Positions 4,603-38,035 of a stretch of 38,035 nucleotides of DNA are shown here, in pieces. Below the pieces are notes generated by a model, which searched no databases, was not told the origin of the DNA, and worked only from the letters and a program-made list of their open reading frames with translations. Position 1 is the first letter of the stretch, and each line of letters begins with the position of its first letter. Where the stretch lies: the UHGV virus genome UHGV-0072754. One strand, 5' to 3'. The position numbers were made by a program, and so were the translations under genes. This DNA comes from a virus.

Positions 4603-4941
4603 ATGAACAGTTTAAACCGATTGAGACCAGCGAAGCAATTCAGATGCCTTCCGCTGGTGGGAAAAGATTCCCCGTTCGGCTATGTGGAGAGATTAAACGA
4701 CCAGGCTGATACGAACAACTACCAGCCTGAGAACGCGATGGTAGAGGCTTTTGCTCAGATGAACGAGAAGGGGCGCGAGGAATGGCTGAAGTTAACCGGC
4801 GATTCAAAGACCACTACGGCGTCCCGGTCCGTGTCATCAGATGGGAGCCACAGACCCGACGCGTTATATACCTTCGCGAAGGGTACGATCATGAGTGCTT
4901 CAGCCCTCTTGAGCAATTCCAGCGTAAATTTACAGAGTTAA
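4603..4941 (+). CDS. Hypothetical protein (112 aa); C-terminal half is overlapped by a better-looking ORF in the -1 frame (4782..4994)
   Basis: Strong SD GGAGAAAC before ATG 4603; Ser/Thr-rich low-complexity C-terminus while the overlapping 4782..4994 frame gives a more protein-like sequence (possible frameshift). Confidence 0.35.
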   Translation: MNSLNRLRPAKQFRCLPLVGKDSPFGYVERLNDQADTNNYQPENAMVEAFAQMNEKGREEWLKLTGDSKTTTASRSVSSDGSHRPDALYTFAKGTIMSASALLSNSSVNLQS

Positions 4942-4950
4942 AGGACGACC

Positions 4951-5877
4951 ATGAGCCTGTTGATGCCATCCCGGCCGATAGTGATAAACCCTGACCTTGC
5001 ATACAGCATTGGCCTGAACGAGGCCATTGCGTTGCAGCAGGTTAACTACTGGCTTAAAGAAACCACCTCCGGACTGGAGCGTGACGGCGTGCGCTGGATT
5101 TACAACACCAACGAGCAGTGGCTGGAGCAGTTCCCGTTCTGGTCTGAGTCTACGCTGAAGCGCACATTCACCCGCCTGAAGCAGCTCGGCGTGCTCAAAG
5201 TTGAGCAGCTGAACAAGTCTCAGCGCGACATGACGAACTACTACACGATCAACTACGAAAGCGAGCTTTTAGATGAGCTCAAAGTGACCAAATCGAAGAG
5301 TTCAAAATGCACTCTTCCATCAGGTCAAAATGAACCGATGGAAGAGGTCAAAGTGGAACGCTCCATCGGTTCAAAACGAACCGCTCTCATCAGGTCAAAT
5401 TGCACTGATGTTCTTACAGAGAATACAACAGAGAATACTACAGATATTAAAAACCCTATTTGTCCGGTTGCGCCGCAACCAGACGGTGATGTGTTGATCA
5501 CCGATCAGGCTAAACAGGTTTTAACCCATCTGAACCAGGTGACCAGTTCGCGTTATCAGGTTTCAACAACCTCGCTGCAAAATATTCGTGCCCGAATCGG
5601 GGAGGGCTACACCGTTGAAGAATTGTCGCTGGTGGTGGACTACTGCAACGCCAAGTGGAGCGAAGACCTGACGATGGCGACCTACCTTCGACCACAGACG
5701 CTTTTCCAGCCGTCCAAGTTCCCTGGCTACCTGAAGTCAGCGAACAGTTGGGCCAAAGCTGGGCGACCTCCTCGCGTAAACGGAGAGTGGGCCCGAGAGG
5801 ATGGGGTTTTCCGCTCCAGTTTCCAGAACACTGACTACAGCAAAGTCCCGGCAGGCTTCAGAGGAGCGAACTCATGA
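4951..5877 (+). CDS. Replication initiator, lambda O-like (308 aa)
   Basis: AAGGA SD; position after the cII-like gene; iteron array lies inside the linker-coding region as in lambda O; conserved-looking C-terminal domain. Confidence 0.7.
   Translation: MSLLMPSRPIVINPDLAYSIGLNEAIALQQVNYWLKETTSGLERDGVRWIYNTNEQWLEQFPFWSESTLKRTFTRLKQLGVLKVEQLNKSQRDMTNYYTINYESELLDELKVTKSKSSKCTLPSGQNEPMEEVKVERSIGSKRTALIRSNCTDVLTENTTENTTDIKNPICPVAPQPDGDVLITDQAKQVLTHLNQVTSSRYQVSTTSLQNIRARIGEGYTVEELSLVVDYCNAKWSEDLTMATYLRPQTLFQPSKFPGYLKSANSWAKAGRPPRVNGEWAREDGVFRSSFQNTDYSKVPAGFRGANS
5297..5462. repeat. Candidate replication origin: 4-5 iterons plus adjacent AT-rich segment inside the O-like gene
   Basis: Repeats of ~GGT(T)CAAAAYGMAC with inverted symmetry (CATCAGGTCAAAATGAACCGATG 5319-5341, GGTTCAAAACGAACC 5368-5382, CATCAGGTCAAATTGCACTGATG 5388-5410) followed by cagagaatacaacagagaatactacagatattaaaaa. 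Confidence 0.55.
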
Positions 5878-20580: not shown

Positions 20581-21738
20581 ATGTCTGAACTCGCTCTCAT
20601 TCAAAAAGCAATCGAAGAATCCCAGCAGAAAATGACCCAGCTGTTCGATGCGCAGAAAGCTGAAATCGAAAGCACGGGCCAGGTTTCAAAACAGCTGCAG
20701 TCCGACCTGGCAAAAGTACAGGAAGAACTGTCCAAATCCGGTACCCGCCTCTTCGATCTGGAACAGAAACTGGCTTCCGGTGCTGAAAATCCGGGTGAGA
20801 AGAAATCCTTCTCTGAACGTGCTGCTGAAGATCTCATCAAGTCATGGGACGGTAAACAGGGCACTTTCGACGCGAAGACGTTTAACAAGTCTCTCGGCAG
20901 TGACGCTGATTCTGCTGGCTCACTGATCCAGCCGATGCAGATCCCTGGCATCATCATGCCGGGCCTGCGCCGTCTGACTATTCGTGACCTGCTGGCTCAG
21001 GGCCGTATGACCAGTAACGCTCTCGAATACGTGCGTGAAGAGGTGTTTACCAATAACGCCGACGTAGTGGCAGAGAAGGCGCTTAAGCCAGCGTCGGATA
21101 TCACCTTCAGCAAACAGACCGCGAACGTAAAGACCATCGCGCACTGGGTGCAGGCATCACGTCAGGTGATGGACGATGCGCCAATGCTGCAGTCCTACGT
21201 TAACAACCGCCTCATGTACGGTCTGGCACTGAAGGAAGAAGGCCAGCTGCTGAACGGCGACGGCACCGGGGATAACCTAGAAGGTCTGAACAAAGTGGCA
21301 ACCGCCTACGACACCTCGCTGAATGCCACCGGCGACACCCGCGCTGACATTATCGCTCACGCCATTTATCAGGTGACCGAATCTGAGTTTAGCGCTTCCG
21401 GTATCGTCCTGAACCCGCGCGACTGGCACAACATTGCGCTGCTGAAAGACAATGAAGGCCGTTATATTTTCGGCGGCCCTCAGGCGTTTACCAGCAACAT
21501 CATGTGGGGGCTGCCAGTAGTTCCGACTAAGGCACAGGCCGCCGGTACCTTTACGGTGGGCGGTTTCGATATGGCCTCTCAGGTGTGGGATCGCATGGAT
21601 GCCACCGTGGAAGTCAGCCGAGAAGACCGCGATAACTTCGTGAAAAACATGCTGACCATCCTGTGCGAAGAGCGCCTGGCGCTGGCGCACTATCGCCCGA
21701 CGGCAATCATCAAGGGCAGTTTCTCTTCTGGCTCATGA
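20581..21738 (+). CDS. Major capsid protein (HK97 fold) with N-terminal delta/scaffold-like coiled coil
   Basis: Coiled-coil N-terminal ~100 aa then capsid-like domain; canonical position after the protease. Confidence 0.9.
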   Translation: MSELALIQKAIEESQQKMTQLFDAQKAEIESTGQVSKQLQSDLAKVQEELSKSGTRLFDLEQKLASGAENPGEKKSFSERAAEDLIKSWDGKQGTFDAKTFNKSLGSDADSAGSLIQPMQIPGIIMPGLRRLTIRDLLAQGRMTSNALEYVREEVFTNNADVVAEKALKPASDITFSKQTANVKTIAHWVQASRQVMDDAPMLQSYVNNRLMYGLALKEEGQLLNGDGTGDNLEGLNKVATAYDTSLNATGDTRADIIAHAIYQVTESEFSASGIVLNPRDWHNIALLKDNEGRYIFGGPQAFTSNIMWGLPVVPTKAQAAGTFTVGGFDMASQVWDRMDATVEVSREDRDNFVKNMLTILCEERLALAHYRPTAIIKGSFSSGS

Positions 21739-21771
21739 TGGAGGGGGCGGGGTGACCCGCCCTTTTAACTT

Positions 21772-22098
21772 ATGGCGATAGATGTTCTGGATGTAATTGG
21801 CCTCCGCCTGTTTAAGCAGCAGATTGAATTTGAGGAAGACGACAGGGACGAGCTGATCACCCTTTACGCGCAGGCTGCTTTTGATTACTGCATACGCTGG
21901 TGCGATGAACCAGCGTGGAAAGTTGCAGCTGATATTCCTGCAGCCGTTAAGGGCGCCGTTCTCCTTGTCTTTGCTGACATGTTTGAACACCGCACCGCGC
22001 AAAGCGAAGTACAGCTTTATGAGAACGCCGCAGCAGAACGCATGATGTTCATCCATCGCAACTGGCGCGGTAAATCTGAACCTGAGGAGGGCTCCTGA
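21772..22098 (+). CDS. Head-tail connector (gp6-like)
   Basis: 108 aa, first gene after capsid. Confidence 0.55.
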   Translation: MAIDVLDVIGLRLFKQQIEFEEDDRDELITLYAQAAFDYCIRWCDEPAWKVAADIPAAVKGAVLLVFADMFEHRTAQSEVQLYENAAAERMMFIHRNWRGKSEPEEGS

Positions 22099-22436
22099 TG
22101 GAACCTGGACGATTCAGGCACCGGGTAAAAATTCTCACCTTCACGACTTCGCGCGATCCCTCTGGCCAGCCGGTTGAATCGTGGACTGGTGGCAACCCGG
22201 TCCCGGCTGAGGTGAAGGGGATCAGCGGCAGAGAGCAGCTTTCAGGCGGCGCGGAAACGGCGCAGGCAACCATTCGCGTCTGGATGCGCTTCAGGGCAGA
22301 GCTGAACGCCTCTTCTCGTCTGGAAGTGCTCAGCGGACCGTATAAAGGTCAGGTGCTAAATATCATCGGTCCTCCTGTAGCAAATACGACTGGCACTCGC
22401 CTGGAAATTCTTTGCAAAACGGGAGCCGAAAAATGA
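22098..22436 (+). CDS. Head closure / head-tail joining protein
   Basis: 112 aa; HRVKI...IRVWMR...LEILC pattern recalled from this family; ATGA coupling. Confidence 0.65.
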   Translation: MEPGRFRHRVKILTFTTSRDPSGQPVESWTGGNPVPAEVKGISGREQLSGGAETAQATIRVWMRFRAELNASSRLEVLSGPYKGQVLNIIGPPVANTTGTRLEILCKTGAEK

Positions 22437-22882
22437 TTGAGACGAGCCTCGATTTTTCCGGGTTAAATGACATCGCAAAGGACCTGGAGGCGTTGAGTCG
22501 CGCTGAAAACAACAAGGTTCTGCGTGATGCCACGCGCGCCGGTGCTGAAGTGCTGAAGGAAGAAGTGATCGCTCGCGCGCCAGTGCGTACCGGGAAATTG
22601 AAAAAAAACGTGGTGGTGGTGACCCAAAAAAGCCGCCGCCGCGGGGAAATTTCTTCCGGTGTCCACATTCGTGGTGTCAACCCGCGTACCGGGAACAGCG
22701 ATAACACGATGAAGGCGAATAACCCGAGAAACGCCTTTTACTGGCGATTCGTCGAAATGGGTACTGTTAACATGCCGCCGCACCCGTTCATTCGTCCAGC
22801 GTTCGATGTTCGCCAGGAGCAGGCGACGGAGGTCGCGATCAGGCGCATGAACCAGGCCATTGACGAGGCATTAAGCAAATGA
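22433..22882 (+). CDS. Tail component (HK97 gp10-like)
   Basis: GGAG SD before ATG 22433; ATGA overlap; position. Confidence 0.6.
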   Translation: MIETSLDFSGLNDIAKDLEALSRAENNKVLRDATRAGAEVLKEEVIARAPVRTGKLKKNVVVVTQKSRRRGEISSGVHIRGVNPRTGNSDNTMKANNPRNAFYWRFVEMGTVNMPPHPFIRPAFDVRQEQATEVAIRRMNQAIDEALSK

Positions 22883-24931: not shown

Positions 24932-27900
24932 ATGGCTACGTTGCGCGAACTGATCATCAAGATATCCGCCAATTCACAGTCTTTCCAGACAGAGATTTCA
25001 CGCGCCTCGCGAATGGGGCAGGATTATTATCGGACTATGCAAAATGGTGGCCGTCAGGCCGCCGCTGCCGCGCGTGAAAGCGAAAGAGCGTTATCCGATC
25101 TGACTAACGGTTTTGCCTCTGCAGGAAGGGCTGCTGCTGCAGCTACGGCAGCATTTGCAACGGGCAAGCTTGTACAAATCGCCGATGAGTGGAATTCCGT
25201 AAACGCGCGCCTCAAGCAGGCATCATCCTCTGCTGATGATTTTGCTGCTTCCCAGCGTCAGTTAATGGAAATCAGTCAAAGAACAGGCACGGCGTTTTCC
25301 GATAACGCAAACCTTTTTTCACGCGCAGCTGCTTCAATGCGAGAATACGGGTATAGCTCTGACGAAGTTCTGAAAATTACAGAGGCTGTTTCAACCGGTC
25401 TTAAGCTTTCCGGGGCAAATACGCAGGAGGCAAGCTCGGTTATAACCCAATTCAGCCAGGCTCTGGCGCAAGGTGTTCTTCGCGGTGAAGAATTTAACGC
25501 GGTTAACGAAGCGGGTGATCGGGTAATCCGAGCTCTGGCCGCCGGAATGGGCGTGGCTCGAAAAGACCTGAAAAGTATGGCTGATCAGGGGCAACTTACT
25601 ATTGATAAGGTTGTTCCGGCGTTAATGAGCCAACTCGGTGCATTGCAGGGTGAATTTGCCAGCATGCCGCAAACCGTATCCGGGTCCCTACAAAAAGTAA
25701 CAAACTCATTCATGGCCTGGGTTGGTGGTGTCAATCAGGCTACTGGGGCTACCGATGCGTTGTCTGGTGGGCTGGACGGTATCGCACAGACGCTTGATTC
25801 TTTTACATCATCAGCAGTTAGCGGTGCTCTCAGTGAAGTTGCTGACAATATGTCCACCATAACAACAGTTGCTGGAGCGCTAGTTGGCGTTGGGTTAGCA
25901 AAATACCTCAGCGGAGTTGTAACCAGTGCCACGAGTGCAACAGGTGCGTTAATTTCAGCTGCGAAATCAGAGGTTGCTCTTGCAGTCGCGCAGGATAAAG
26001 CGGCGCAGTCTGCTGTTGCGGCTTCCAGGGCTGAAGTTTATCGGGCTCAGCAAGCAGTACAGAGTTCAAGAAGTGCAGATGTTCAGGCGGCTCAGCAAGA
26101 AAAAGTCGCGGCGGCTGAAGCAAAAGTCACTGCGGCCCATACCAGACTTACGACCGCTCTTGCCAGCGGTACAGCTACGGAAAAGGTGCGAGCCAGAACA
26201 GCACTTGAACGCGCGCAGGCAGGGCTGGTAGCAGCTAAAAATGCCGACGCTCAGGCTGTAGCTGAAAGGCGTCTGGCTGCCGCTCAGGCTGCTTTAAACC
26301 GTAACATCTCAAATCGTGTTTCGACCCAAAGTAATCTCAATAGTGTGACATCTGTCGGCACTCGGCTCATGAGTGGTGCCCTTGGACTTATTGGCGGCGT
26401 ACCGGGTTTGGTGATGCTCGGGGCAGGTGCCTGGTATGCGATGTATCAGAATCAGGAGCAGGCTCGGCGTTCTGCTCAGGAATATGCCAGTCAAATCGAC
26501 GAGATACGAGAAAAAACTTCCCGCATGTCTTTGTCTGAAACAGACGATAATAGGGGGAGGACTGTTGGTGCTCTGGTAGAGCAAAATCGTCTGATTAATG
26601 AGCAAGCCAAAAAGGTTGGTGAGCTGAAGACCCAGATCGATGATTTGAACGCATCGCGTGGAAAGCCGGGCATTAACAGCGAGAACGATGCAAATATACT
26701 GAGAGCGATAGCTATTGTTACTGATCAACTTGCTGTTGAAGAGGGAAAATTAAATGACATGCGAGATAAATCTCGCGGCATACAGCAGGCTCTCGAAGAA
26801 ATTGAACGGCGTCGTAATGATTTAATTCGCGAACAAGCCTGGCGACAGAATGCGGTATATCAGTCGATGATCATGATGAATGGTCAGCATACTGAATTTA
26901 ACCGCCTGTTGGGGCTAGGTAACCAACTTCTTATGGCGCGTCAGGGGCTGGCTAACGTCCCGCTCAGACTTCCACAGGCAGATCTTGACAAAAAGCAAAC
27001 CGATGCCCTCGAAAAGAGCCGTCGGGATCTGGAGTTGTCACGCCTGAAGGGTGAGGCCAAAGAACGTTTACGGTTGAGTTATGCCGCCGATGACCTGGGA
27101 TTAACCAGTGAACCGCAATTCCAGACAGCCCGTCAGGAGTTGATAAATAACGGTCTTATGGAATGGAAAAATAATGAGACCAACAAGCCCAGGGCAAAAG
27201 GTGGTAAAACCGAAGGCGAAAAAACAGAGGATGTTTATAAACGCCTTATAAAGCAGCAAAAAGAGCAGATCGCCTTGCAGGGTCAAAATACCGAACTGGC
27301 AAAACTGAAATACCAGGTTAGCCAGGGCGAACTGGCGACGTTGACAGCGTCCCAGAAGCAGACCCTTTTGCAGAATGCCGCGCTTATTGATCAGCAGAAA
27401 ATTCGTGAGCAACTGGCAGCATATGAAGCAAACCTTGCTGATGCCAACGCCAGCTCGCGTGCATCAAATCAAGCTGAGCTCACTGGATACGGGCAGGGGA
27501 GCCGTACGCGTGAGCGTATGCAGGAAATGCTGCGTATCAGGGAGGAATTTCAGCAGAAAAACGTTGACCTTCAGCGCCAGTATCAGTCCGGTGATATCTC
27601 TGAGGAACTGTATCGCCAGGAGCTGGCACTGAATAAACGTTATCTCGATGAACGCTTACGCGATCAGGCGGGTTTCTACGCTGCGTCTGATGCCCAAAGA
27701 AGTGACTGGGCTGCTGGGATGCGGGAGGGCTTTGCTAACTGGGTAGATACTGCTTCCGATTACGCCTCACAGTCAGCAGACCTGGTGAACAATACCATGT
27801 CTGGGCTGGTGGGGAATATTTCTGAAGCGCTGGCCGGTAACAAAGTTGACTGGGAGGACTGGTCAAAATCGGTACTGGCATCCATGCAGAAAATTATCCT

Positions 27901-33721: not shown

Positions 33722-35056
33722 ATGTCGGCAGGAACCATTACCCTGACAAACGGGTCCGCTATTGTTGGCGGTGCCGGAACCTCATTCGCAACCGAACTCT
33801 CCGGAGGTGATTTCATTGTTTCGACTGTGGGCGGTGTGCCCTACACGCTGCCGGTGAAAACGGTCGACAATAATACCCAGGTGACGCTGGTCAGCAACTT
33901 CACCGGGCCAACACAATCCGGCGCTGCCTGGTCAGCCGTTCCCCGCGTTGCGCTGAACATGGTAACTGCTGCGCTGGTGGCACAAAGTGCAGAAGCGCTG
34001 CGTGGACTGAATTACGACAAAAAGAACTGGCAAAGTATTTTTTCTGGAAACGGCAATGTAACAGTGACTTTGCCGAATGGGACGAAATGGACGGGACCAG
34101 CATGGAATGGCATTGCCACTACTCTCTCAGGCAAGGCGGCAAAAGGTGCAAACGATGACATTACCTCGCTAAGCGGGCTGACTACAGCGCTAAGTATTTC
34201 ACAGGGAGGGACTGGTGATAAAACTGCCGCTGGCGCTCGCAAAAACCTCGGTCTGGGAACTTCTGCAACGAAAAACACAGGAACAACGAGCAATGATGTC
34301 ATGCAGCCAGGCATGTTTGGGCTTGGTCGTCCGGATGGGGCATTAATATTCAACACAACGAGCCAGGATGATCTTCTTGTTGGATTGACAGGGTATGGGC
34401 TTACGGTTCTTCGAAATAATGCACAGATACCAGAGCCATGGAATATATGGAACTATTCACCGACAATATTTGCCCGTGCAGGTGATACGTATAGCCTTTT
34501 TTCAATGCCTTTTCAGTCATCTGGAAAAGTACGTATTTTGGGTGGCGCTGCAGGATCAGGTTGGAATCACAGCAGGATATTATACGATGATAAAAACACA
34601 GTCGTGGATAGCAATGGCTTTATAAAGAAGGCATCCCCGGTCGTCAAAATCTTCACTGATGGTAAGTATGAAACTAACGACGAATCAGAAGGCGTCACGG
34701 TCACTCGTCTGGATGTCGGGCAATATCTTATTGAAGGCTGTAAAGCACTCAATTCAGACGCTGCATGGGGAGGTATCGACGGAGGGTTTGAGATTCCCAC
34801 AGACAGGAATAAGCAACCGCTTATATGGCTGGACTACGAGGTTAACGCAGATGGCTCTGTGCTGGTAAAAACCTATCACCGCGAACATCCTTCTGCGCCA
34901 GCATTTGCCAGGAATGAGCGTGATGGATTGGCAGATGGCGAGCCGGTTGACATCCCGGCTGACCAGTTCGTCAGCGTTCGTGTAGAAATGCCAGCTGACA
35001 GCATCTGGAATAAGAAACAAGCGGAAGAGGCTTTAAAGCAGGAACAGGGCTCGTAA
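33722..35056 (+). CDS. Side tail fibre protein (444 aa)
   Basis: Conserved fibre N-terminus MSAGTITLTNGSAIVGGAGTSFATELSGGDFIV; Gly/Thr-rich shaft; AT-richer distal part. Confidence 0.75.
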   Translation: MSAGTITLTNGSAIVGGAGTSFATELSGGDFIVSTVGGVPYTLPVKTVDNNTQVTLVSNFTGPTQSGAAWSAVPRVALNMVTAALVAQSAEALRGLNYDKKNWQSIFSGNGNVTVTLPNGTKWTGPAWNGIATTLSGKAAKGANDDITSLSGLTTALSISQGGTGDKTAAGARKNLGLGTSATKNTGTTSNDVMQPGMFGLGRPDGALIFNTTSQDDLLVGLTGYGLTVLRNNAQIPEPWNIWNYSPTIFARAGDTYSLFSMPFQSSGKVRILGGAAGSGWNHSRILYDDKNTVVDSNGFIKKASPVVKIFTDGKYETNDESEGVTVTRLDVGQYLIEGCKALNSDAAWGGIDGGFEIPTDRNKQPLIWLDYEVNADGSVLVKTYHREHPSAPAFARNERDGLADGEPVDIPADQFVSVRVEMPADSIWNKKQAEEALKQEQGS

Positions 35057-35096
35057 AAAAAACCGCCGCCATTTTTCGTAAGAATGAGCGGCGGTT
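35054..35096 (-). terminator. Terminator for the leftward DinI-like gene
   Basis: On minus strand: 8-bp stem ACCGCCGC/GCGGCGGT with 18-nt loop followed by U-run. Confidence 0.45.
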
Positions 35097-35150
35097 GATT
35101 GCTCAGAGTTCATGCCCAAACAAACGTAGGGAATATTACCTGAACAAGAT

Positions 35151-35417
35151 TTACAGGCCAACCTGGCGAACGGTCGGGAACTCAGAAACCAGCCACATAT
35201 CGGACTCTTCAAACATTTCCTCCAGCATGCGGTTCAGTTTTTCCCGATCGCTTTTGCTGGCATCGCTATTCAGGCCGTTTGCCTGCATCGGCTTCACCTT
35301 CACTTCGGCATCAGGGAAAATCTGGTGCACCCGCTTCTTCAACTCGGCCAGTATGATCTCTCTGGCCCCTTCGAGCCCCTCTACATTTCGCTTGTCATAA
35401 ACCAACTCAACGAACAT
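35151..35417 (-). CDS. DinI-like damage-inducible protein (88 aa)
   Basis: C-terminus EEMFEESDMWLVSE matches the DinI signature (E. coli DinI ends ...ETWESADDWFVSE); GGAGAG SD; LexA box in promoter. Confidence 0.75.
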   Translation of the reverse strand: MFVELVYDKRNVEGLEGAREIILAELKKRVHQIFPDAEVKVKPMQANGLNSDASKSDREKLNRMLEEMFEESDMWLVSEFPTVRQVGL

Positions 35418-35460
35418 CACTCTCCATCCTTGCTGACTTGATCTGGTGAAACAAAAATAC

Positions 35461-35480
35461 TACTGTATATGCATACAGTC
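35461..35480. promoter_or_regulatory. LexA box (SOS operator) between divergent genes
   Basis: TACTGTATATGCATACAGTC, perfect CTGT-N8-ACAG palindrome; on minus strand it sits in the spacer of TTGACT-N17-TATTTT. Confidence 0.75.
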
Positions 35481-35503
35481 AATAATCAAGTGAGGGTGCT
35501 GCT

Positions 35504-35743
35504 ATGCCTCGCCAATATGATATTCACGCAGCTTTTTTAGCCTCTATAGAACAGAATCCAAAGGGCTACCTTTGCCTAAAAACAAACAAATTCATCAATA
35601 ATTTGCGCGAGAAGAACTGGCATTTCAGCCAGGCAGACGCTAACGCATGGATTGAGAGATACCAGCCTGATTTTGCTGATAAGACGACGGATGGCAGTGA
35701 TAACCGTTACTGGATCTTGCGAAATATGGGGAGGGTATTCTGA
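35504..35743 (+). CDS. Hypothetical protein (79 aa), first gene of LexA-box-proximal operon
   Basis: GAGGG SD; 24 nt downstream of the LexA box; ATGA-coupled to next gene. Confidence 0.5.
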   Translation: MPRQYDIHAAFLASIEQNPKGYLCLKTNKFINNLREKNWHFSQADANAWIERYQPDFADKTTDGSDNRYWILRNMGRVF

Positions 35744-36063
35744 TGGGCTTTCCTTCACCAGCAATGGATTACCAGGAACAACGGTTAACCATCGATCTGT
35801 TATGCGGAATTGATGGAAACTGCAGGGTAATAGAAACGTCATGCGGTTGGGCTGTCATTAACGTTGCCATGAGGCCAGAGCAGGGAGATACGCTACTGGT
35901 AAGAATGGATAACAGGAACGAGTTTGCAAAGCTATACGGGGCGGCATTGATAACTGAAGATGGTGAAGCGATAGAAGGCGACGCGCTGGATGACGTGGAG
36001 GTTTTTGGCGTGCTAACGCATAGTCTTAACCGGGTTGGTAATGATGACTGCCCGGCAATTTAA
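35743..36063 (+). CDS. UmuD'-like protein lacking the Ser/Lys catalytic dyad (106 aa)
   Basis: N-terminus MGFPSPAMDYQEQR matches UmuD residues 25-38 (GFPSPAADYVEQR) and C-terminus DVEVFGVLTHSL matches DTLDVFGVVIHV; no GDSM motif. Confidence 0.55.
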   Translation: MGFPSPAMDYQEQRLTIDLLCGIDGNCRVIETSCGWAVINVAMRPEQGDTLLVRMDNRNEFAKLYGAALITEDGEAIEGDALDDVEVFGVLTHSLNRVGNDDCPAI

Positions 36064-36115
36064 AGCAGGGTTCAACCATCATTTCATCATCGTTTCGCCA
36101 TCATGGTTTACGGGA

Positions 36116-36146
36116 ACAAAAAACCAGCCTCTTACGGCTGGTTTTC
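36116..36146. terminator. Bidirectional-type terminator adjacent to tRNA-Pro fragment
   Basis: A-run, CCAGCC-tcttac-GGCTGG, T-run. Confidence 0.55.
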
Positions 36147-36156
36147 AAAGTGTTTT

Positions 36157-36205
36157 TGGTCGGCACGAGAGGATTTGAACCTCCGACCCCCGACACCCCA
36201 TGATG
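36157..36205 (-). other. tRNA-Pro(GGG) 3' fragment (~47 nt, anticodon loop to CCA); relic attachment-site candidate
   Basis: Minus-strand sequence TCATGGGGTGTCGGGGGTCGGAGGTTCAAATCCTCTCGTGCCGACCA matches the 3' part of E. coli proL as recalled; no 5' half present. Confidence 0.65.
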
Positions 36206-36211
36206 GTGACC

Positions 36212-36625
36212 TTACTTAACGTAAGTACCGCAAGTATTGCATTTATACTTACCGGCAAAACGAAATTGACCGTTTACTGCGCTCATTGAAGACATTTTCT
36301 TTTCTGAACTTTCATAGCATTTGGGACAAAAAGGGCCATTAGGCTTTCCTTCAATTTCATTAGCCCGCCAGTAAACTGCTTCACGGAAAACAAGCTCATC
36401 AGAAGCGTCCAGTTTTCCTTGCAATTCTGTAACCTTGCGCTTCAGTTCATACATCTCCAATTGCGTATCAGCCAATTCGATTTTTGCTTCTGATAAGGCG
36501 CTGTAAAGATCACTGATCTTTAACCTCATCTCGGCATCATTGTATGCTCCAGAGGCGTTTTTAATGTCTTTGGCTAAATCAAATGCGGTTTTCAGTGCGG
36601 TTAAACCTGTGACGATGTCTGCCAT
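36212..36625 (-). CDS. Hypothetical coiled-coil protein with C-terminal zinc-ribbon (137 aa)
   Basis: AAGAGGG SD; CPKC-x17-CNTC; low GC; sits between two tRNA fragments. Confidence 0.55.
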   Translation of the reverse strand: MADIVTGLTALKTAFDLAKDIKNASGAYNDAEMRLKISDLYSALSEAKIELADTQLEMYELKRKVTELQGKLDASDELVFREAVYWRANEIEGKPNGPFCPKCYESSEKKMSSMSAVNGQFRFAGKYKCNTCGTYVK

Positions 36626-36840
36626 AGTACCCTCTTATATTCAGAAAAATGATCTTCAAAACAACGAGTTTACATCCAGCGAAAGATTTTTTTTGTGAAT
36701 AAAATCAAACCAATTTCAGGCTCAACCATTCGCCATTGTGACTGTAGGATAACCGTAAACCATTGATTCAATTGATGTTAAAATTATGAATTAATGGCGA
36801 ACAATAAACATATGTATTTGATTTTTATAGAAAACACGCG

Positions 36841-36897
36841 TGATTTAAAATCCCTCGGCGTTCGCGCTGTGTGGGTTCAAGTCCCACTCCGGCTACC
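36841..36897 (+). other. tRNA-Leu(UAA) 3' fragment (57 nt); candidate prophage attR core
   Basis: GATTTAAAATCCCTCGGCGTTCGCGCTGTGTGGGTTCAAGTCCCACTCCGGCTACCA matches the leuZ-type tRNA-Leu 3' part from anticodon loop to CCA; upstream 30 nt are AT-rich non-tRNA sequence. Confidence 0.7.
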
Positions 36898-36937
36898 ATG
36901 GGAAACAAAGAATAATCAAAGCAATAAGCAGTGTCGT

Positions 36938-36962
36938 GAAACCACCGAAAGGTGGTTTTTTT
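36938..36962 (+). terminator. Intrinsic terminator of the host tRNA locus
   Basis: CCACC-gaaa-GGTGG then TTTTTTTT. Confidence 0.6.
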
Positions 36963-37200
36963 GTGCCTCTGGCTTAGCGCGAAGTGAGCGCATCTCATCG
37001 TCATCACGATCGTGCTGTGCCCGGAAATTTGCTGCCATACCAGAACGTTAAGCCTAACTCTCTAATATCAAGCCCGGAAAGCAGGGCGATTGTCAGCTAA
37101 CCTGCAACCAATCTTAAACAAATATTTCACTCGCCAGACACAGGTTGCCGCCGCTGATAAACTGGTTGGTATCCACCCTGGAGAGCGGAAGGTTATTGTC

Positions 37201-37878
37201 ATGCAATATGAAGAACAGCAGCTTATCAACGGCCTTTTCGAGCGTCTTAAACAGGCCGGACAACAAAACAGCAAACGTGATGCAGATGCAGAGCGTCAGA
37301 TCGCTGAATTTGTCAGACAGCAGCCTGCGGCCCCCTACTATATGGCGCAGTCGATTTTGATTCAGGAAACGGCGCTGAAACGTCTGCAGGCCCGGGTTCA
37401 GGAGCTTGAAAGCGAATTAGCCGCGCAAAAAAGCAAACCCTCGACGGGCGGCAGTTTCCTCGGCGGCCTGTTTGGTGGCGGGAAAAGTAACCCGCAGCCT
37501 GACAACAGCTGGAATGCCCAGCCGCAACAGCCACCGGCGCAGGATTACTCTCGGGCGCCAGCGCCAGCTACTCGCGGCGGCGGTTTTATGGCTGGCGCGC
37601 TCCAGACAGCCGCTGGCGTGGCCGGTGGCATCGCGCTTGCCGAGATGCTTACCAGCATGTTCCATCAGTCGCGGCCGGAAGAGATCGTGAACATCATCGA
37701 AGAACCGACAATGCCCGTCGGTGGTGGACCGTTTGTCGGTAATCAATACGGCGACGTTAATAACGTCTCTGACACCCGTTTCCTCAACCAGAACGATCCG
37801 TTCGGCAGTAATAACGACATCTGGCAGAACGACGATGTAGATGACGACTACAGCAATGACGACGACAGTTTTATTTAA
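37201..37878 (+). CDS. Host-side hypothetical protein, Gly-rich centre and Asp-rich C-terminus (225 aa from ATG 37201)
   Basis: Track ORF begins at TTG 37090; first ATG with plausible SD at 37201; GC content and codon use differ from the AT-rich islet. Confidence 0.45.
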   Translation: MQYEEQQLINGLFERLKQAGQQNSKRDADAERQIAEFVRQQPAAPYYMAQSILIQETALKRLQARVQELESELAAQKSKPSTGGSFLGGLFGGGKSNPQPDNSWNAQPQQPPAQDYSRAPAPATRGGGFMAGALQTAAGVAGGIALAEMLTSMFHQSRPEEIVNIIEEPTMPVGGGPFVGNQYGDVNNVSDTRFLNQNDPFGSNNDIWQNDDVDDDYSNDDDSFI

Positions 37879-38035
37879 CGACGTTATCGTGAAACTACCG
37901 AAATGAAGTGAACCCCGAAAGTTGGGTATCCAACGATTAGGGGTTTTGCGTTTCTGAATCAAAAAAACCTTTGAGGCTAAGCCTGAAGGCTCATAAATCA
38001 CATTCTTTTTACTATTTTTCTTACTAACAAACCTG

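Follow-up and report, generated by a model that had tools for sequence, protein, structure and literature searches.

The closest described relatives of the DNA analysed here are phages that carry attachment (att) sites derived from either of two transfer RNA (tRNA) genes. Phage mEp390 (NC_019721; Hendrixvirinae) and E. coli prophages at leuZ share a tRNA-Leu(UAA) core, a P arm and integrase arm sites of the ATGGCGAA type; in the annotated phage attachment site (attP) of mEp390 the core and P arm are followed by a convergent integrase gene. Phage Flotzy (PP925827) carries a complete attP of the proL type, in the order humD-like gene, three GGGGAA repeats, hairpin, 46-nucleotide (nt) tRNA-Pro core, arm of about 135 nt and integrase of 395 amino acids (aa). 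In the E. coli CX21 prophage, at proL beside yejM, the phage-borne core and hairpin complete a functional tRNA-Pro. Here we describe the right end of UHGV virus genome UHGV-0072754, a stretch of 38,035 nt (the window), in which 3' fragments of both tRNAs flank one gene for a 137-aa protein. Like the window, mEp390 has humD-like and dinI neighbours; unlike the window, mEp390 and the E. coli TST3 prophage lack a cargo gene, Pro core and proL terminator between humD and the P arm, and mEp390 retains mere remnants of the arm repeats that form a full triplet in the window. Unlike in Flotzy and CX21, the Pro core of the window leads to a cargo gene and then to another att site, of different specificity, with no integrase of the proL type, Int(Pro).

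Morons and cargo hot spots are known in temperate phages, a concept of Hendrix and colleagues, and Rousset and colleagues reportedly described defence hot spots of P2/P4 in 2022. The gene in the window resembles a moron in being a single gene of lower G+C content (GC) with its own terminator, in its presence or absence among similar phages, in its fixed slot and in having an Abi-type gene among its alternatives. The difference from moron slots is that the boundaries are two att pieces of different specificity and that the inner tRNA fragment supplies the terminator. Accretion of cis-mobilizable elements and integrative and conjugative elements (CIME-ICE) produces tandem arrays of integrative elements at tRNA and transfer-messenger RNA (tmRNA) genes, and Williams is said to have described the traffic at such genes. 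As in accretion, leftover tRNA fragments mark past recombination here, and relatives have tandem elements at leuZ; accretion repeats the same core, whereas here Leu and Pro cores flank one gene inside one functional-looking prophage. No description of this arrangement was found in a literature search, which is weak evidence of novelty.

Results

Positions 36070 to 36962 of the window are best explained, at a probability of roughly 0.8 for the whole reading, as the right attachment region of an mEp390-like lambdoid prophage that retains half of an older, proL-type attachment site, now used as a recombination joint. The right end of the window is, as judged from sequence comparison, that of a lambda-like prophage in the tRNA-Leu(UAA) gene leuZ of Enterobacter roggenkampii. 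The unoccupied site L021 (loci used for comparison carry L numbers) encodes the same DUF2076 protein, has no prophage, and is ordered uvrY-uvrC-pgsA-tRNA-Gly-tRNA-Cys-tRNA-Leu(UAA)-terminator-DUF2076. The window equals this site from 36842 to its own end. Identity begins at the G of GATTTAAAATCC; to the left of the junction the host has ACACAAGG where the window has ACACGCGT. Position 36842 therefore lies in the phage/host junction region, the crossover took place in or beside the anticodon loop, and the Leu fragment is the displaced 3' part of the host gene. This fragment (36842-36898, plus strand) comprises the 57 nt at the 3' end of leuZ, anticodon loop through CCA, and is identical to the empty site at 57/57 positions. 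We identify it as the core of the predicted right prophage attachment site (attR) because the window equals the empty leuZ site of E. roggenkampii from 36842 rightward. The native leuZ terminator follows in host DNA (36938-36962, plus strand; -12.9 kcal/mol, z = -3.6), with the same sequence as in the empty site, and the host DUF2076 gene lies beyond it (37201-37878, plus strand; Pfam DUF2076, E = 2e-58). The protein encoded by this gene is exactly WP_199557662 of E. roggenkampii, which marks the DNA as that of the host.

To the left of the core, the phage P arm of the leuZ-type site extends over about 115 nt (36726-36841, plus strand) and shows homology both to the attP annotated in mEp390 and to the right site of TST3, an E. 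coli prophage at leuZ/yecA with the same attR as the window. It contains two integrase arm-type sites, TTCGCCATT at 36729-36737 and AATGGCGAA at 36793-36801, which form a perfect inverted pair. Arm sites of the ATGGCGAA type also occur four times each in the P' arms of mEp390 and of L303, a locus whose ParB-like protein is identical to that of the window. L303 encodes a 336-aa integrase, 92% identical to that of mEp390, followed by the four arm sites, a terminator and an Enterobacter-type tRNA-Leu 3' end. An intact leuZ, with this integrase family about 150 nt further on, is found in at least 40 IMG/VR prophage contigs. Three relatives are inserted at sites other than tRNA genes; the sites of L005 and L010 share only GATTTTAAATCA with the core, and that of L008 only TAAATCA. 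This sharing agrees with a crossover in the anticodon loop, and the leuZ-type integrase would, by the same comparison, also use non-tRNA secondary sites. The prophage end adjoins a DsrC-family (PF04358) gene in Citrobacter L008 (5754-6001), and the ends in L005 and L010 lie at about 5760-5860.

The remainder of the window carries a lambdoid, HK97-like gene set, with a CI-like repressor, a CII-like activator, replication genes, terminase, tail and tail fibre, and in the early region it shares about 91% identity with mEp390. Position 712 of the window aligns to position 25468 of mEp390, whose integrase gene occupies 21664-22674; the integrase of this prophage should therefore lie some 3-4 kb outside the left edge. 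No integrase was found in the window by tblastn with the Flotzy and mEp390 integrases as queries. The left attachment site (attL) of this genome lies outside the window, and L302, from the same sample, ends about 1 kb past the ParB-like gene.

The second fragment (36157-36203, minus strand) comprises the 47 nt at the 3' end of tRNA-Pro(GGG), anticodon stem/loop through CCA, and is the core of a proL-type attP half-site. It matches intact tRNA-Pro at 47/47 positions, the references being the gene annotated in E. coli CX21 and intact copies from IMG/VR flanks, and identity extends to 36208 (52 nt) with one mismatch, at 36204. A 34-nt Pro probe has a single match in the window, with 0.00 expected from shuffles, and no second Pro core was found in the 38 kb with up to 3 mismatches allowed. 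ARAGORN detected no tRNA in the whole window, and Rfam detected none in 35000-38035, where its sole match, P9 (E = 0.47), is a chance match of terminator type. After the core comes a hairpin terminator (36116-36145, minus strand; -17.3 kcal/mol, z = -4.7) with perfect 10-nt arms and a U run, which faces the humD-like gene from the opposite side. Its stem varies in a compensatory manner among relatives (CCAGCC/GGCTGG, CCAACC/GGTTGG, GCAGCC/GGCTGC). A simple terminator scanner called neither this hairpin nor that of leuZ; in each, the T run is probably taken up by the A/T extension of the stem. Beyond the hairpin are three arm-type repeats, ATGGCGAAAC, ATGATGAAAT and ATGGTTGAAC (36070-36102, minus strand), which belong to the P arm of the proL-type attP. 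A triple repeat of the ATGGTGAAA type also follows the tRNA-Pro terminator in the attP sites of L144 and L277, which have Flotzy-type integrases, and in many relatives. The repeats at this position fall into two classes, ATGG(C/T)GAAA-like in the window and GGGGAA, three times, in other phages.

At functional proL sites the integrase gene stops 129-155 nt from the core, and a conserved P' motif of about 130 nt, beginning GGCGCGG, is present. That motif is absent at the Pro core of the window, where 8 nt separate the 47-nt core from the stop codon of the 137-aa gene. Together with its terminator and the arm repeats, the tRNA-Pro piece is thus most readily identified as the backbone-side half of a proL-type attP, left behind by replacement, because the order is that of Flotzy and CX21 while the P' motif and the integrase are missing. 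The comparison shows that an ancestor of this backbone used a proL-type integration module, whose P' arm and integrase have since been replaced by the cargo gene with a leuZ-type attP and integrase.

The molecular description in the earlier note stands up well against these results. It had reported a 47-nt tRNA-Pro(GGG) 3' fragment with an adjacent terminator on the minus strand and a 57-nt tRNA-Leu(UAA) 3' fragment with a host-type terminator on the plus strand, neither with a tRNA 5' half, flanking a low-GC gene for a 137-aa coiled-coil/zinc-ribbon protein. All of this is borne out, including the low GC (0.35-0.43 over 36200-36899, versus about 0.48-0.50 in the phage genes to its left), and the positions given were right to within a few bases. 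Its proposal that the Leu fragment is attR agrees with the empty-site comparison and with the homology of the P arm to the mEp390 attP, and the concern that the fragments might be chance matches is dispelled by the full-length identities to the two tRNAs.

We then considered the arrangement in relatives of the window. Wherever the context of a homologue of the 137-aa gene is readable, the gene is the first one inside an att junction. The outer site is tRNA-Leu(UAA) of two host types, ssrA (Klebsiella L011), icd (L036, L039 and Morganella) or another tRNA (L287). Right after the stop codon, most loci have the tRNA-Pro core, the hairpin and the arm triplet; L025 and L039 have an ssrA 3' fragment with its arms in place of the Pro half-site, and L040, Morganella, Dickeya and L037 have no copy or a decayed one. 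Starting from the core, a second tRNA or tmRNA 3' end was found within 3 kb in 29 of the 156 IMG/VR loci that have the Pro core and at least 300 nt upstream of it. The half-site is not tied to the 137-aa gene. L224 has the same outer att site and a backbone side about 91% identical to the window, but an unrelated 108-aa gene in the slot. Other genes likewise occupy it in L160, L184, L253 and E. coli strain 1500, and the occupants seen include AbiTii (Pfam, 4e-27; PADLOC PDLC02334), a 282-aa membrane protein, a protein with a weak HEPN match, a Bro-N protein (L203) and proteins of no known kind. In E. coli strain 1500 (L298, NZ_CP040269, 4282-5629) the order is intact ssrA, a 272-aa hypothetical protein (WP_072020831, with no Pfam or PADLOC match), tRNA-Pro fragment and humD-like gene. 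The slot is empty in mEp390, TST3 and L176, the last of which keeps the Pro core. Cargo genes stop 0-15 nt before the core, except for the oppositely oriented Bro-N gene. Taken together, this sandwich of two att pieces occurs with at least 4 outer att types and at least 7 cargo types, and the half-site is found in Enterobacter, Escherichia, Citrobacter, Klebsiella, Kosakonia and Salmonella Gifsy-2. A profile search of genome contigs with the 137-aa protein yielded 3 loci, none informative on the Pro fragment.

The Pro core is far better conserved than its surroundings. Four-fold degenerate sites of the cargo gene differ between loci by 60% on average, which is near saturation, versus 1.8% in the adjacent 46-nt core, in a comparison whose loci were found through the protein and so are not biased to an intact core. 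The core thus evolves more than 30 times slower than the silent sites of the gene beside it. The core is also where similarity between phages breaks off. The window is 98.8% identical to L028 over the 758 nt left of the core, which include the Leu core, the P arm and the gene, and unrelated to it on the right. With L224, L191, L145, L134 and L196 the window shares 81-91% identity over the 420 nt right of the core and is unrelated on the left. L134 and L196 are live proL phages, since the former has the P' arm and Int(Pro) and the latter an intact tRNA. The recurrent core variant GTCAGGGG is a real tRNA-Pro allele, which intact tRNAs pair with a compensatory C-to-T change. Among fragments that carry it, L034 has the matching upstream CACTG, L010 has CACTA (a partial match) and L038 has CACAG, and in L005 the variant is joined to the upstream bases of the other allele. 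The arm triplets beyond the terminator are intact in most loci. The Pro core would be a maintained recombination joint rather than an inert fossil. The simplest reading of these patterns is repeated exchange, at the 46-52 bp of universal identity, between sandwich phages and live proL-type phages. Phage enzymes of the Red/RecT type act on homologies of about this size.

The gene between the two att pieces (36212-36625, minus strand) encodes a 137-aa protein identical to WP_126348851, a 'hypothetical' protein of Enterobacter, with a helical hairpin (residues 2-73) and a C4 zinc ribbon (CPKC...CNTC). The open reading frame is real, because 48 homologues keep the pattern CPxC...CxxC with all four cysteines invariant; homologues at 47% identity or more occur only in Enterobacterales. 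An AlphaFold2 model built from 22 sequences (predicted local distance difference test score, pLDDT, 76) consists of the hairpin and a small beta domain that holds the four cysteines. The protein matches PHROG 1244, a family of unknown function. The only Pfam match is to Zn_ribbon_IS1595, below threshold (17.6 bits against a cutoff of 25.4), NCBIfam and PADLOC contain no matching family, and a Foldseek search against the PDB returned nothing beyond generic helical hairpins (best E = 0.46). The homology and structure search suggested in the earlier note was thus productive for homologues, and it produced no curated family and no PDB fold match. We also considered a DksA/TraR-like reading of the hairpin with its C4 zinc domain and rejected it: Pfam gives no match to that family, and no DksA is among the 50 best Foldseek matches. 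A profile search of a library of 50%-identity representatives gave 2591 clusters at E <= 0.001 and 844 at E <= 1e-10. The 150 best matches are nearly all stand-alone proteins of about 130-160 aa, and none of the 10 family representatives sampled has a Pfam domain. One 4333-aa representative (P0143) matches the coiled-coil part only, 22 times, and is probably a low-complexity artefact.

The region upstream of the gene (36626-36725, minus strand) contains a strong Shine-Dalgarno sequence, AAGAGGG, at about 36630-36637 and a presumed promoter, and the motif TTTGATTTTA(C/T)TCACA is kept upstream of homologues. The hairpin at the Pro core would end the cargo transcript. By position and distribution the gene qualifies as a moron, and its description as cargo at the prophage-host junction, already put forward in the earlier note, is upheld because it is absent from, or replaced by other genes in, otherwise matching phages. 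Since the slot elsewhere holds an abortive-infection gene, we suggest, with low confidence, that phage exclusion or defence is the likeliest role of the 137-aa protein.

On the other side of the half-site, the last backbone gene (35743-36063, plus strand) encodes a 106-aa humD/UmuD-like protein (PHROG 3469, UmuD-like, E = 1e-47) and converges on the proL-type terminator. A humD-like gene also precedes the tRNA-Pro core in Flotzy and CX21, and mEp390 shares it. The protein has no match to any Pfam family, Peptidase_S24 included, and may be a short, non-catalytic protein of the HumD type. Its gene has as neighbours a DinI homologue (35151-35420) and a gene for a 79-aa protein of PHROG 3893.

Several further observations concern the two att pieces. 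The loop of the Pro terminator reads TCTTAC on the plus strand (window 36124-36141), the reverse complement of GTAAGA in CX21 (L002/L003, ~4699-4716) and nearly that of GTAAAA in Flotzy, and the whole hairpin looks flipped. Salmonella Gifsy-2 (L299, NC_010393, 44260-44334) has a decayed tRNA-Pro fragment with an internal deletion, in an unannotated stretch near its right end. This copy too has a hairpin and arm repeats, of the GGGGAA type, and looks like an older version of the same half-site. The proL-type arm repeats (ATGG[C/T]GAAA) and the leuZ-type sites (ATGGCGAA; ATGGTGAAAC in L029-L032) are nearly one motif, as seen in the window at 36070-36102 and 36729-36801. Between Flotzy-type and mEp390-type integrases, by contrast, the only similarity is a weak local match (110 residues, 23% identity). 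Module swaps might be easier if arm specificity is shared. The sequence TTCGCCAT at 36094-36101 had suggested a leuZ-type arm site duplicated around an inserted islet; L028, L029, L144 and L224 rule this out and place it in the proL triple repeat. Short direct and inverted repeats flanking the islet (D3, D8, I4) lack conserved counterparts in relatives and probably arose by chance.

At the host locus, an island with a P4-type integrase stands in tandem with the prophage in Citrobacter braakii L006 and L009 (3449-5770), directly outside the tRNA-Leu fragment. The island carries an Arm-DNA-bind_3 integrase and DUF2787, and a GTPase gene lies at the far edge of L009. leuZ is therefore a landing site for multiple elements. 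Other E. roggenkampii (L019 and L020, 1-5400) have, upstream of the DUF2076 gene, a gene for a 1911-aa DUF4011/AAA_11-12 helicase and an IS3-family transposase; in the 12.7 kb examined there, neither a tRNA nor an exact copy of the tRNA-Leu fragment was found.

Discussion

Read from the host leftward, the region would consist of the leuZ terminator, the displaced 57 nt of leuZ as attR core with the crossover in the anticodon loop, a phage P arm of about 115 nt with ATGGCGAA arm sites for the integrase, and a one-gene cargo cassette, coiled-coil and zinc-ribbon, transcribed into the prophage. Innermost would lie the 47-nt Pro core, the hairpin and the three arm repeats, directly joined to the humD-like, dinI and tail-fibre genes. 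In the proposed history, the P' arm and integrase of a proL-type site were swapped, in an ancestor of the backbone, for the cargo gene with a leuZ-type attP and integrase. The retained half-site may since have had two roles: its terminator would stop the cargo transcript, and it would be the joint at which backbones and integration/cargo modules are re-assorted among phages. Repeated re-assortment would keep the Pro core looking fresh, and decay would set in where the site is not renewed. Phage mEp390 looks like an empty form that has additionally lost the core and hairpin and has kept remnants of the arm repeats.

The earlier note had described the Pro fragment as a fossil attachment site, left by an exchanged integration module or by a decayed second element. 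The exchanged module is favoured by the Flotzy/CX21 order and by the loss of the P' arm and integrase; the word fossil is too passive for a core that is nearly invariant and forms a live breakpoint. A strictly inert relic of a single old module swap, inherited vertically, without a present role and intact merely through recency, would account for a Pro piece without its P' arm and cognate integrase, for the decayed versions in L037 and in Gifsy-2, where an internal deletion is joined by decay of the arms, and for the entire loss of core and terminator in mEp390. We nevertheless regard it as improbable, for recency does not fit a core at 1.8% divergence beside a gene whose silent sites, at 60%, are saturated. 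The arm repeats past the terminator are also intact triplets, in two classes, the core varies along with the alleles of tRNA-Pro, similarity between mosaic phages ends sharply at the core from either direction, and the sandwich exists with at least 4 outer att types and at least 7 cargo types. No more credit can be given to the other branch of the note's proposal, in which a tRNA-Pro-targeting island or satellite entered the proL-like attP of the phage and decayed to the Zn-ribbon gene. Cargo genes that read toward the core and stop 0-15 nt short of it do resemble the last gene of an island at its att repeat, the tandem of P4-type-integrase island and prophage at leuZ in Citrobacter (L006, L009) provides a parallel, and satellites of the PICI (phage-inducible chromosomal island) type have been reported to target tRNA-Pro genes (PMC10111431). 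This origin is not favoured by the single Pro core in the window, with none on the other side of the gene. Moreover, no remnants of an integrase or regulator lie between the cores, the slot holds one gene or none, and at its left edge the cassette borders on the leuZ-type P arm and not on another Pro site.

The close fit between cargo genes and the Pro half could also point to the RNA, the tRNA-Pro 3' half being kept as the 3' untranslated region of the cargo mRNA, where a T-arm/acceptor-like structure with its terminator would stabilise or process the transcript or mimic a tRNA. All cargo genes that read into the Pro half have stop codons 0-15 nt upstream of it, the 106-nt 3' region folds better than shuffled sequences (z = -2.5), and changes in the terminator stem are compensatory. 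Such a function seems highly improbable when the conservation is one of strict tRNA identity that follows host tRNA alleles, and not of covariation, when conservation extends to the arm repeats past the terminator, outside the transcript of the gene, and when L176 retains the core without a cargo gene. A more active role than that of a joint is conceivable, in which the Pro half-site is a working docking site where integrases of proL-type phages graft the cargo with its alternative integration module onto new backbones, and the reverse. This would amount to an integron-like, att-mediated exchange of cassettes and modules among co-resident or co-infecting lambdoid phages. It would explain the stops at 0-15 nt, the intact and allele-tracking core with its arms, and the breakpoints exactly at the core; we consider it unlikely on present evidence.

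Some points weigh against the reading preferred here, that of a prophage attR whose retained proL half-site acts as a maintained joint. The attL and integrase of the prophage itself fall beyond the window, and its other end is known from relatives alone. Loci found by exact-pattern scan were selected for an intact core, so that only the protein-anchored set gives an unbiased measure of core divergence. The Pro fragment is truly decayed in some lineages (L037, Gifsy-2), and maintenance is thus not universal. Homologous exchange and exchange catalysed by Int(Pro) fit the present data alike. For the cargo gene, a consensus scan of its upstream region gave no strong sigma-70 site, and the defence role is a guess from position, to which PADLOC, Pfam, NCBIfam and the PDB fold search added nothing.

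The arrangement is of an ordinary kind, prophage mosaicism. Three things set it apart: the two-att sandwich recurs, unrelated cargo genes abut the Pro core precisely, and there is evidence that the half-site is maintained as a joint. For the window itself, the annotation is settled: the end of the prophage, the tRNA gene in which it sits and the reason for the second tRNA piece within it are accounted for. Beyond this case, half an attachment site can persist as a landmark common to many enterobacterial prophages, bounding a slot for one cargo gene. This slot offers a cheap route to new candidate defence or exclusion genes, the 137-aa family among them, and the locus provides a concrete case of phages changing their integration specificity while keeping their late genes.

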